A stretch of 64,000 nt of DNA, from the NCBI GenBank assembly GCA_029979265.1, contig JAPOHW010000002.1, positions 24,552 through 88,551 of the forward strand. Reading direction: 5' to 3'. How positions within the stretch are numbered: the first letter of the stretch is position 1; every line of letters begins with the position of its first letter. The notes under the pieces were generated by a model, which saw nothing but the letters and a program-made list of their open reading frames with translations, had not been told where the DNA came from and did not search any database. Positions 4,631 through 27,176 of this stretch are shown in pieces. The position numbers and the translations under genes are program-made. This DNA is from Actinomycetota bacterium. Lineage in GTDB: Bacteria > Actinomycetota > Acidimicrobiia > Acidimicrobiales > Aldehydirespiratoraceae.

Positions 4631-5443
4631 ATGGCCGAACTCACGGGCTTCACGTACCCCCGAACCCCCACCGGGGCAGGCAGCGTTCTTCCCGACCCCC
4701 CATGGCACTACTCCGGGGACATGCTGACGATCGAATTCCGCACCGACCCGGCCAACGTGGCCGAACTCCTCCCCAACGGCTTCGAACTCGCCGAGGAGGA
4801 CCCAGGCGCATGCGCACTGATCTGGGCGTGGTGGCAGAGCTGCTCGGATTCGTTCGAGGAACTGCTCGATCCGTCCCGGGCCCAATACAACGAGACCTTT
4901 CTCGTCGTGCGCTGCCGGTACGACGGGGTCACCTACAGCCGCGCCGTGTACATCTGGGTCGACAAGGACTTCGCCATGTCACGAGGCCATGTGCAGGGCT
5001 ACCCGAAGAAACTCGGCGAGATGTGGATGACCAAGCCGGTGCCGTACGGCAGGGCCGGGCCCCGCCTCGAACCGGGTGGGCGGTTCGGCGCAACCCTGTC
5101 GACCTTCGGTCGCCGTCTCGCGAACGCCAGCTTCACCATCACGGGACTGGCCGATACGCCTGGCTTCGTGAACGGCCACCCGATGCTCCACAGCCGCCAG
5201 ATGCCCGCAATCGAGATGGACGGTCGCGATTCGCTCGACGAACTCGTCACCATGACCGGCTACGACGCCGAGGCCGGCCCGGTCTATGCCGGTGATGCAA
5301 CGCTCGAGCTCCTCGACGCACCCACCGAGGAGCTCACCCGTCTTGCCCCCTTCGAGATCATCGGGGGGTACTTCCGCCAGGTCGGTCAGTCGATGCACGC
5401 CGGCACGACGGTCGTCGCCCACCCGAACCCGTTGGCGACATGA
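4631..5443 (+). CDS. Acetoacetate decarboxylase (ADC) family protein
   Basis: 'MAELTGFTYPRTPTGAGSVLPDPPWHYSGDMLTIEFRTDP...VYIWVDKDFAMSRGHVQGYPKK' fits the ADC-family fold signature. Start chosen at the ATG after the palindrome; a TTG at 4595 is the alternative. Confidence 0.7.
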   Translation: MAELTGFTYPRTPTGAGSVLPDPPWHYSGDMLTIEFRTDPANVAELLPNGFELAEEDPGACALIWAWWQSCSDSFEELLDPSRAQYNETFLVVRCRYDGVTYSRAVYIWVDKDFAMSRGHVQGYPKKLGEMWMTKPVPYGRAGPRLEPGGRFGATLSTFGRRLANASFTITGLADTPGFVNGHPMLHSRQMPAIEMDGRDSLDELVTMTGYDAEAGPVYAGDATLELLDAPTEELTRLAPFEIIGGYFRQVGQSMHAGTTVVAHPNPLAT

Positions 5444-25438: not shown

Positions 25439-26590
25439 ATGACCGACTCCCCCTTCGACGTCGCCGAGATCGACCGGCTGCTCACGACGACGCGAACCGT
25501 CCGCAAGCGTCTCGACTTCGACCGCAACGTCTCCGACCAGGTCATTTTCGACTGTATCGACATCGCTGAACAGGCGCCGAGCGGCGGCAACGACGCAAGC
25601 CGTCGGTGGATCGTCGTGCGCGACGAGGCGACCAAACAGAAATGCGGAGAGATCTATCGCCGCAACGGCGCCTTCATGATCGACGTCGCCGAGCGGCTCG
25701 CCGGCAGCGGCCACGGCAAGGAACAGGTCTTCAGTTCATCGGCATACCTGGTCGAGCACTTCGCAAAGGCACCGGCGTTGGTCATCGCCGCGATCTGGGG
25801 AATCCACGACGACTCCGGTCGTCCGGGCTTGTTCGACTCTGTCATCCAGTCGGCCTGGAGCTTCAACCTTGCACTCCGAGCGCGTGGCCTCGGCTCGGCG
25901 TGGACCACCCTGCTCAATGCAAGCGTCGACGAGCTCGCTGACATCCTTGCGATCCCCCCTGGGGTCACGACGATCGTGACCTTCCCGGTGGCGTACACGA
26001 AGGGAACCGACTTCACGCCGGTGGCGCGTCGCCCGGCTGAGCAGATCACCTACTTCGATCGCTGGGGGTACACCCGCGCCCGGGCGAGCGAAGACGGTGG
26101 CACCCATTTCGAAGACGGTCCCGGCGTGGTTGCCGAAGTCGACATCGATGCGCCGCCGAAGGCAGTCTGGCCGGTCGTGTCCGACATCACGTTCCCGGCC
26201 GGAGCCGACACCGAACTTCGAGATGCCGAATGGGTGACGAGCGACCGCGGCGTCGGGGCGGTCTTCATCGGCCACAACAAGCTCGGTGACAACGAGTGGA
26301 GCGTCGACAACCACATCACCGCATTCGAGGATGGTCGGGTCTTCGAGTGGTCGACCGTCGACCCGGCGAACCCGGGAGCTCGCTGGCGGTTCGAGATCAT
26401 GGACCAAGGGGTCGGCAGCCGCGTGCGGTTCTCGGTCGAGATCGGCATGGAGAACAACCTCACCTATGCGATGGCGATGGATTCCGACGACCCGGTTTCG
26501 GTCCTGAACGGTCGCCGCAAGCGCATGAAGGCCAACATGCAAAATACCCTCGATGCCATGAAAGCGGTCGTGGAGGACGCTCGGGCGTGA
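25439..26590 (+). CDS. Nitroreductase-family domain fused to a C-terminal SRPBCC (START/cyclase-dehydrase-like) domain
   Basis: N-terminal 'IAEQAPSGGNDASRRWIVVRD' nitroreductase pattern over about 215 aa. C-terminal 'VVAEVDIDAPPKAVWPVVSDI...RWRFEI...SRVRFSVEI' is typical of SRPBCC. Confidence 0.7.
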   Translation: MTDSPFDVAEIDRLLTTTRTVRKRLDFDRNVSDQVIFDCIDIAEQAPSGGNDASRRWIVVRDEATKQKCGEIYRRNGAFMIDVAERLAGSGHGKEQVFSSSAYLVEHFAKAPALVIAAIWGIHDDSGRPGLFDSVIQSAWSFNLALRARGLGSAWTTLLNASVDELADILAIPPGVTTIVTFPVAYTKGTDFTPVARRPAEQITYFDRWGYTRARASEDGGTHFEDGPGVVAEVDIDAPPKAVWPVVSDITFPAGADTELRDAEWVTSDRGVGAVFIGHNKLGDNEWSVDNHITAFEDGRVFEWSTVDPANPGARWRFEIMDQGVGSRVRFSVEIGMENNLTYAMAMDSDDPVSVLNGRRKRMKANMQNTLDAMKAVVEDARA

Positions 26591-26633: not shown

Positions 26634-27176
26634 ATGACTCGGCCTGCGGTCGGTGAGCGTGCGCCCGAACTCATCCTTCGCCGGGCCAACGGAGATCGGT
26701 GGCGGTCTGCTGATCACCGCGGCCGCACGCTCCTGCTCATCTTCCACCGCCACATCCATTGACTGCCCTGCGCAGCTCACGCCGCCGCCGTGCGCGATCG
26801 GCTCGACGAGTTCGCTCCGAACACCGACGTCGTGGTGGTGACGTTCACCGATCCCGAACGGCTCTGCGACTACCTCGGCCGCAACGATCTCCCGTTTCCG
26901 GTCGTGATCGATCCGGATCGCGCTGCCTATCGGGCATTCGGACTCGGCCGAGCACCGATCGTGCGGGCCTGGGGGTTCCGGGCGGCGCTGGCGTATCTTC
27001 GACTCTTCGTCCGGGGTCGATGGCGTGATCTCCGCCGACCCACGGAAGACACCTTGCAGTTGGGTGGCGACTTCGTCATCGGTCCCGATGGAACGCTCGT
27101 CTACGGATTCTGGTCCAGGGGCCCCGACGATCGCCCCCGCATCGATGAACTGATCGCTGCGAGTGGACCGGGCTGA
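26634..27176 (+). CDS. Peroxiredoxin-like (AhpC/TSA_2, PRXL2-type) thioredoxin-fold protein with an in-frame TGA at the first redox position (U-L-P-C): candidate selenoprotein, or a TGA-disrupted pseudogene
   Basis: ATG 26634 and the 26790-27176 track ORF share one frame (difference 156 nt), interrupted only by TGA 26760-26762. Translation: 'MTRPAVGERAPELILRRANGDRWRSADHRGRTLLLIFHRHIH[TGA]LPCAAHAAAVRDRLDEFAPNTDVVVVTF...LQLGGDFVIGPDGTLVY'. Confidence 0.55.
26769..26796 (+). other. Possible SECIS-like stem-loop 7-34 nt downstream of the in-frame TGA
   Basis: UGCGCA (26769-26774) can pair with UGCGCG (26791-26796): 5 Watson-Crick pairs plus 1 G-U, enclosing a 16-nt G-containing loop. Folded by hand only. 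Confidence 0.25.

Follow-up and report, generated by a model that had tools for sequence, protein, structure and literature searches.

The locus analysed here raises the question whether a TGA codon interrupting an otherwise open reading frame is read as selenocysteine (Sec) or ends translation. The window, i.e. the whole stretch of 64,000 nucleotides that was analysed (G+C content 65 %), harbours on its forward strand a frame that opens with ATG at 26634–26636, terminates with TGA at 27174–27176 and is interrupted by a sole internal stop, TGA at 26760–26762; the ORF at 26790–27176 lies in the same frame. It is very probable that TGA 26760–26762 is a genuine Sec codon and that the region 26634–27176 (+ strand; 180 codons plus stop, as judged from frame and homology) is a full-length selenoprotein gene of an Acidimicrobiales bacterium, coding for a SelL-related, Prx-like UxxC redox protein. 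A first-pass annotation of the DNA had favoured the selenoprotein reading, which is now borne out by TGA in 76 of 77 species, by a covarying bacterial SECIS (bSECIS) hairpin and by a joined protein scoring above the cutoff of the NCBIfam model NF040769. The coordinates (ATG 26634, TGA 26760–26762, ORF 26790–27176), frame and joined translation proposed there proved exact throughout.

The joined translation reads ...LLLIFHRHIH-U-LPCAAHAAAVRDRL...LQLGGDFVIGPDG...GPDDRP..., with Sec as residue 43 and the redox motif U-L-P-C (TGA CTG CCC TGC, 26760–26771) comprising residues 43–46. The stop codon at 27174–27176 corresponds to the terminator of the gene in 57 of 76 relatives, which is likewise TGA. 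Upstream, the preceding gene ends at 26590 (stop codon TGA, 26588–26590). No strong Shine-Dalgarno sequence was seen before ATG 26634, and the start codon was therefore assigned by homology: the two closest MAGs (L004, L005) have an equivalent Met, and tblastn alignments begin at query residues 1–6. The nearest genome locus, L004 (Acidimicrobiales MAG JBMTIM010000018), shares 92 % identity for the selenoprotein and 96–98 % for the neighbouring genes. The same protein with the same in-frame stop was found in three independent Logan assemblies (L001, SRR27204720; L002, SRR21518225; L003, SRR20245399), the stop being read as TGA in L001 and L003. Since the three assemblies agree, the base call at 26760–26762, for which confirmation in the reads had been recommended, represents no sequencing error.

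When the joined protein, with Cys in place of the TGA, served as query of a protein search, 433 relatives were retrieved. Among the best 120 of these, 119 span only 64–76 % of the query at lengths of 125–167 residues, and the truncated relatives begin right after the Sec codon, some literally at "MPCAAHA". Judged from these sequences, this suggests a systematic truncation of the family by gene callers. In the window, the false start chosen by gene callers is GTG at 26790–26792 (Val53), which opens the ORF 26790–27176 and is located inside the apical loop of the SECIS hairpin described below. The Val53 codon is GTG in most relatives and GTC or GTT in about a dozen, which demonstrates that GTG 26790 is no conserved start codon. 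In most relatives, GTG 26790–26792 is held by an RNA-level constraint on the CGUGC loop (26789–26793). With GTG held inside the SECIS loop, 119 of the 120 best database matches are consequently shortened to ~126–135 residues and labelled "AhpC/TSA family protein". As already remarked in the first-pass annotation, a start at GTG 26790 loses strand beta1 and the redox centre, and the annotated 128-aa ORF accordingly covers only positions 49–172 of NF040769, at 89.5 bits and thus below the cutoff (120 bits).

Conservation of the in-frame TGA was assessed by a one-genome-per-species tblastn scan, which yielded 80 loci with matches across the stop (query residues 1–180). These loci derive mostly from Acidimicrobiales, Ilumatobacteraceae and Ca. 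Microthrix MAGs (Ilumatobacter MAGs are also among the TGA-form loci) and further include the cultured isolate Actinospongicola halichondriae Hal317 (L073), Ca. Dormibacterota (L068 and L080) and Miltoncostaea (L070). The TGA form is also present in closed genomes, namely NZ_CP171622 (Hal317), OZ244139 and OZ245048. TGA occupies the redox position in 79 of 80 sequences, next to one TGC and neither TAA nor TAG; of the 77 loci from other species in which the motif was located, 76 have TGA and only L081 departs from it, with TGC, whereas TAA and TAG do not occur. Proteins of the TGA-bearing species are 45–92 % identical to the window protein, and the context FHRH-x-x-U-[LV]-[PS]-C hardly varies among relatives. 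In keeping with the earlier placement of the TGA at the first Cys of a CxxC motif, the TGA-L-P-C of the window aligns with C-L-P-C in P0107 and L081, two Cys homologues of full length. In the 20 codons before the TGA, mean column entropies at codon positions 1/2/3 amount to 0.70/0.52/1.27, versus 0.58/0.51/1.26 in the 20 codons after it. This equal codon-position entropy on either side, together with the terminal TGA in relatives, argues for one continuous coding region under purifying selection. Homologues devoid of a conserved segment upstream of 26790 would have spoken against Sec; the 42 codons preceding the TGA are conserved and lie within the family profile, the N-terminal 42 residues matching NF040769 positions 2–48.

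The putative bSECIS hairpin is located at 26781–26802 (+ strand; 5′ arm 26781–26788, loop CGUGC 26789–26793, 3′ arm 26794–26802), i.e. 19–43 nt 3′ of the UGA with the loop at 26-nt spacing. In the window it folds as GCCG.CGC-CGUGC-GCG..CGGC at −9.4 kcal/mol, its stem being broken by a 1x2 internal loop. Bacterial SECIS elements are characterized by an apical loop of 3–9 nt that has a G among its first two nucleotides and usually G/U after it, a UGA-to-loop distance of 16–37 nt and an MFE of −7.5 kcal/mol or below (PMC13188914). The window hairpin falls within all of these limits (loop CGUGC with G at loop position 2 followed by U, 26 nt, −9.4 kcal/mol), as do 59 of 77 family sequences in an unconstrained fold; the energy limit by itself is reached by 72 of 77. 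The SECIS prediction that the first-pass annotation had proposed as a check thus came out in favour of Sec, the more so as the hairpin covaries across the family.

This covariation was evaluated in an ungapped alignment of 77 TGA-containing sequences (set A2), in which the family hairpin comprises alignment columns 22–29 and 35–42 as arms, a 5-nt loop and 8 bp in the consensus (GCGGUCGC-CGUGC-GCGACCGC, −16.0 kcal/mol). The window hairpin is weaker than the consensus through a Val-to-Ala codon change common to its two closest relatives. The full helix was named beforehand and then tested on the 77-sequence alignment: 81 % of the hairpin cells are paired, versus 20–47 % upon sliding the 3′ arm by 1–3 nt, and 0 of 500 shuffles attained the observed values on any measure. 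Compensatory changes on both sides were detected for six of the eight pairs, including swaps from G-C to A-U in L068 and from U-A to C-G and C-G to U-A in L073, with amino-acid changes alongside. Moreover, synonymous third positions 18 nt apart covary (Ala in column 24, Arg in column 42; Fisher p=2.6e-9), C going with G in 27 sequences and G with C or U in 30, such that the lower stem switches between two registers. Averaged over the 77 genes, the MFE of a sliding 26-nt segment reaches its minimum within −120 to +360 at +18/+21 from the UGA (−11.3 kcal/mol versus typically −4 to −8 kcal/mol elsewhere), and third-position entropy is 0.44–0.75 at codons +8 to +11, which form the stem top and loop, versus about 1.3–1.9 nearby. 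The single-sequence fold of 26755–26830 is no better than shuffles (z=+1.1), and the hairpin signal therefore emerges only in the comparative analysis. When run unsupervised, RNAalifold found no more than the upper four pairs, at weak energy. Rfam at gathering thresholds had no match in the window, and near the gene it gave only noise, as is to be expected from the poor coverage of bacterial SECIS elements in Rfam. Of the two Cys forms, L081 is devoid of a hairpin at the site (−0.9 kcal/mol), and in P0107 another hairpin follows a few nt downstream of it.

Some members of the family deviate from the common pattern in hairpin or taxonomic affiliation. In the sub-clade of L064, L067 and L072 (...AVALQ-x-x-L...), the consensus hairpin sequence is replaced by folds of ~−7.3 kcal/mol with other loops, and a variant SECIS may operate in these members. 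Outside Acidimicrobiia, TGA-form genes with the same hairpin occur in L068 and L080 (Ca. Dormibacterota) and L070 (Miltoncostaea, Thermoleophilia), suggesting that the gene was transferred horizontally between high-GC lineages that use Sec, or that its ancestral distribution was wider. The bin of L026 (CAXMSE010000103.1) is labelled "uncultured Gammaproteobacteria"; its TGA-form gene and the neighbour of this gene closely resemble their counterparts in the Acidimicrobiales MAG L018, and L026 is probably a mis-binned Acidimicrobiales contig.

Genes for the Sec machinery were searched for with ARAGORN (tRNA-Sec) and with tblastn using the E. coli SelA, SelB and SelD proteins. All are absent from the 64-kb window, in which the first-pass annotation had likewise seen no sel gene, and from the flanking loci of 80 orthologues (~1.2 Mb), indicating that the machinery is not linked to the selenoprotein gene. 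A metagenome scan with a high-GC SelA motif retrieved 80 selA loci, and no Acidimicrobiia SelA was identified among those examined. The best tetranucleotide match among the selA loci, L156, belongs to Solirubrobacterales and hence provides no link to the same chromosomes; among ten further SelAs, from Coriobacteriia, Myxococcota and Binatia or of unnamed origin, none was identified as Acidimicrobiia either. Ilumatobacter coccineus, I. nonamiensis and Ca. Microthrix parvicella possess SelD, SelA and SelB (Peng et al. 2016 Table S1, PMC5029168), and 15, 10 and 7 known selenoproteins, respectively, are recorded for them, versus 1 in most Sec-using Actinobacteria (Peng et al. 2016 Table S2, PMC5029168). 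In Actinomarina, a member of the same class, all 84 complete genomes contain selC, selA, selD and a divergent selB (2026 preprint). Sec decoding in the lineage is thus established by SelA/B/D in Ilumatobacter and Ca. Microthrix, whose MAGs carry the TGA form; this rests on related genera, the source genome being seen only in the 64-kb window. The initial reservation that Sec is uncommon in Actinomycetota does not apply here, considering that Sec is not unusual in Acidimicrobiales (Peng et al. 2016).

The joined protein matches Pfam AhpC-TSA (PF00578; 3.8e-17, 62.8 bits, cutoff 26), AhpC-TSA_2 (PF13911; 1.6e-12, 48.3 bits, cutoff 27) and Redoxin. With NF040769 ("SelL-related redox protein"), it scores 134.2 bits when residue 43 is entered as C and 125.7 bits when it is entered as X, and it covers positions 2–172 of the 173 profile positions. 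The assignment to AhpC/TSA_2 (PRXL2)-type thioredoxin-fold proteins, made initially from the letters, is hence upheld by Pfam and NF040769 scores above the cutoffs. The NF040769 cutoff is also exceeded by the proteins of Actinospongicola (L073) and Dormibacterota (L068) and by the Cys form P0107. An AlphaFold model of P0107 (49 % identical to the window protein; pLDDT 87.5, pTM 0.84) displays a peroxiredoxin-type thioredoxin fold with the CxxC (residues 43–46) at the N-terminus of helix 44–55 and a helical insertion at about residues 100–140. A canonical peroxiredoxin was considered and rejected: the motif PxxxTxxC is missing, since in F-H-R-H-I-H-U-L-P-C Arg stands for the Pro of the motif and Sec for its Thr (alignment to 2cx3), and the NCBIfam equivalog models for thiol peroxidase and PrxQ remain far below their cutoffs (34.9 vs 140 and 24.2 vs 260, respectively). 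By its sequence, the protein is Prx-like with a thioredoxin-type UxxC centre.

Against this background, other readings of the TGA can be weighed. A recent nonsense mutation (TGC or TGT to TGA), as put forward in the first-pass annotation, would render the gene a pseudogene, and a sequencing error would have the same appearance. TGA and TGC are one base apart, the lone Cys-form genome locus L081 indeed has TGC, and sel genes were not found in the window. Yet chance damage hardly accounts for the same TGA in 76 other species at 45–92 % identity with coding periodicity intact on either side, and an error hardly for its recurrence in three independent assemblies; with the covarying hairpin following the codon in addition, pseudogene and error are both exceedingly improbable, and the nonsense mutation is rejected. 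Even less credence, practically none, can be given to a reassignment of UGA throughout the genome, on the pattern of genetic codes 4 or 25, in favour of which nothing beyond the in-frame TGA itself can be adduced. The genomes are those of high-GC Actinomycetota, the gene's own terminator is TGA in the window as well as in the above 57 of 76 relatives, and TGA also stops neighbouring genes, e.g. the upstream gene at 26588–26590. As TGA is an ordinary terminator in these genomes, UGA is not reassigned.

Somewhat more room, while still very little, is left for decoding of the UGA other than by Sec, be it near-cognate read-through (Trp, Cys or Arg) stimulated by the hairpin, or production of a 42-residue peptide and a separate 128-residue protein from GTG 26790. 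Such decoding could be reconciled with Sec machinery seen in related genera and a source genome covered only by the 64-kb window, and a split gene with the presence of GTG 26790 in most relatives. The site, however, coincides with the catalytic Cys of CxxC, a classic Sec/Cys pair, the hairpin fits the bSECIS geometry, and related genera possess SelA/B/D. For the split gene in particular, the supposed start codon is GTC or GTT in about a dozen relatives, and the 128-residue product is without strand beta1 and the redox centre and remains under the family cutoff.

According to the preferred reading as a Sec codon, the ribosome would encounter UGA at codon 43 of the mRNA, and the hairpin 19–43 nt downstream would recruit SelB carrying Sec-tRNA(Sec), such that Sec would be inserted in place of termination; for the source organism, both SelB binding and Sec insertion are here deduced from the gene and its relatives. 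The predicted product is a 180-residue Prx-like thioredoxin-fold protein in which U43-L-P-C46 forms the active site, at the N-terminal end of the first long helix. The most likely catalytic cycle would alternate between the selenolate/thiol and the selenenylsulfide, and the protein may serve as thiol-disulfide oxidoreductase or as thiol-dependent reductase of an oxidised substrate.

The gene neighbourhood was inspected across the loci. In the window, the neighbours code for a nitroreductase-SRPBCC fusion, a PNPOx-like protein, an acyl-CoA-synthetase-like enzyme and a homocysteine S-methyltransferase, and these neighbours recur only in the two closest MAGs (L004, L005). The fusion gene directly upstream (25439–26590, + strand) encodes a nitroreductase-family domain (residues 17–184) and an SRPBCC/polyketide-cyclase-type domain (residues 230–379), and resides beside the selenoprotein gene only in L004 and L005. 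No universal partner gene was found across 78 loci. A single neighbour recurs, a membrane methyltransferase of ICMT type encoded directly downstream in 18 of the 78 loci, with the ICMT/PEMT-type signature ...YRYVRHPIY..., on the same strand and at a median of +650 nt from the Sec codon (e.g. L013:4768-5598); an ICMT-type gene is absent from the window. The rare Cys form P0107 is surrounded by a redox cluster on its contig (L086/L087, 876-6528): a thioredoxin-domain protein and a pyridine-nucleotide disulfide oxidoreductase, the gene of which overlaps the start of P0107 by 4 nt, are encoded upstream, and a DsbD-type membrane protein and a second redoxin downstream. This cluster hints at an electron-donor system for the family. 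A scan of viral contigs revealed no relatives of the protein. A crude GC3-based screen brought up two other in-frame TGAs in the window, at 5441 (+) and 20810 (−), both flanked by open sequence of coding character. Neither resembles a selenoprotein, as a redox motif containing Cys is missing from both, and the same screen overlooked the Sec codon at 26760; the two sites probably represent junctions between genes or antisense frames.

One might speculate that the Acidimicrobiales-centred clade represents a selenoenzyme with a function of its own, dedicated to a particular substrate or partner, rather than a generic thiol-disulfide oxidoreductase. Such a role might follow from the near-obligate use of Sec (76 of 77 species), the lack of a characterised member and the failure of the Prx active-site motif, and the ICMT-type neighbour (18 of 78 loci) and the P0107 redox cluster are weak hints in this direction; on balance, we consider it rather unlikely.

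The relevance of the locus resides mainly in its annotation. Public databases carry hundreds of "AhpC/TSA family" fragments of 126–135 residues without the redox centre, and the error affects essentially every database entry of the clade. The full 180-residue selenoprotein corrects the proteome of the source bacterium and adds evidence for Acidimicrobiales as selenoprotein-rich Actinomycetota, and no new mechanistic question is opened.

Among known proteins, the closest solved structures to the P0107 model are those of PrxQ/BCP, AhpE and ResA/TlpA, with TM scores of 0.7–0.84 and Foldseek E-values of about 1e-9 to 1e-10. Sequence similarity to them is weak (13–24 % identity), and the window protein differs from PrxQ/BCP and AhpE in being devoid of PxxxTxxC and from all of these groups in the extra helical insertion at ~100–140, which is typical of AhpC-TSA_2 proteins. 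Like SelL, it is a Prx-like thioredoxin-fold selenoprotein. The motif of SelL is UxxU, whereas all 77 sequences of the window family have UxxC. SelL is a Prx-like thioredoxin-fold selenoprotein of eukaryotes (PMC2398784) that is reported from fish, invertebrates and marine bacteria and has two Sec residues forming a diselenide (PMC2397514), as compared to the selenenylsulfide expected for UxxC; furthermore, the eukaryotic SECIS is located in the 3′ UTR, and the window hairpin within the coding region. Having UxxC and not two Sec residues, the window protein is related to SelL but is not SelL. With NF040769, in contrast, no difference was detected, the whole-profile score exceeding the curated cutoff with either C or X at the Sec position. 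A Prx-like UxxC selenoprotein family with distant Prx homology, in which UxxC replaces TxxU, was described in the Sargasso Sea selenoproteome (Zhang et al. 2005, PMC1088965), and "Prx-like 1" (pfam00578, UxxC, 225 sequences) in the GOS selenoproteome (Zhang & Gladyshev 2008, PMC2398784). Later surveys call the family "Prx-like thiol:disulfide oxidoreductase", and under this name (PF00578, UxxC/UxxU) a 2026 review still counts it as a selenoprotein predicted with high confidence. The window protein shares with Prx-like 1 the pfam00578-type fold and the thioredoxin-like UxxC, and one read given between "#Prx-like 1" and "#Prx-like 2" in GOS Dataset S1 (JCVI_READ_1092963558137, "...HVVLIFHRHIHULPCTEHVIAVSDRLADFG...") has the signature LIFHRHIHULPC identical to the window. 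Prx-like 1 differs in being a broad bin, most listed members of which have other motifs (WUPYC, WUPFC), whereas the window protein falls into a single sub-clade (FHRH-x-x-U-LPC ... QLGGD ... GPDDRP) with its centre in Acidimicrobiales. The family has thus been known as a predicted selenoprotein since 2005–2008, and the window gene is an additional, mis-annotated member of it.
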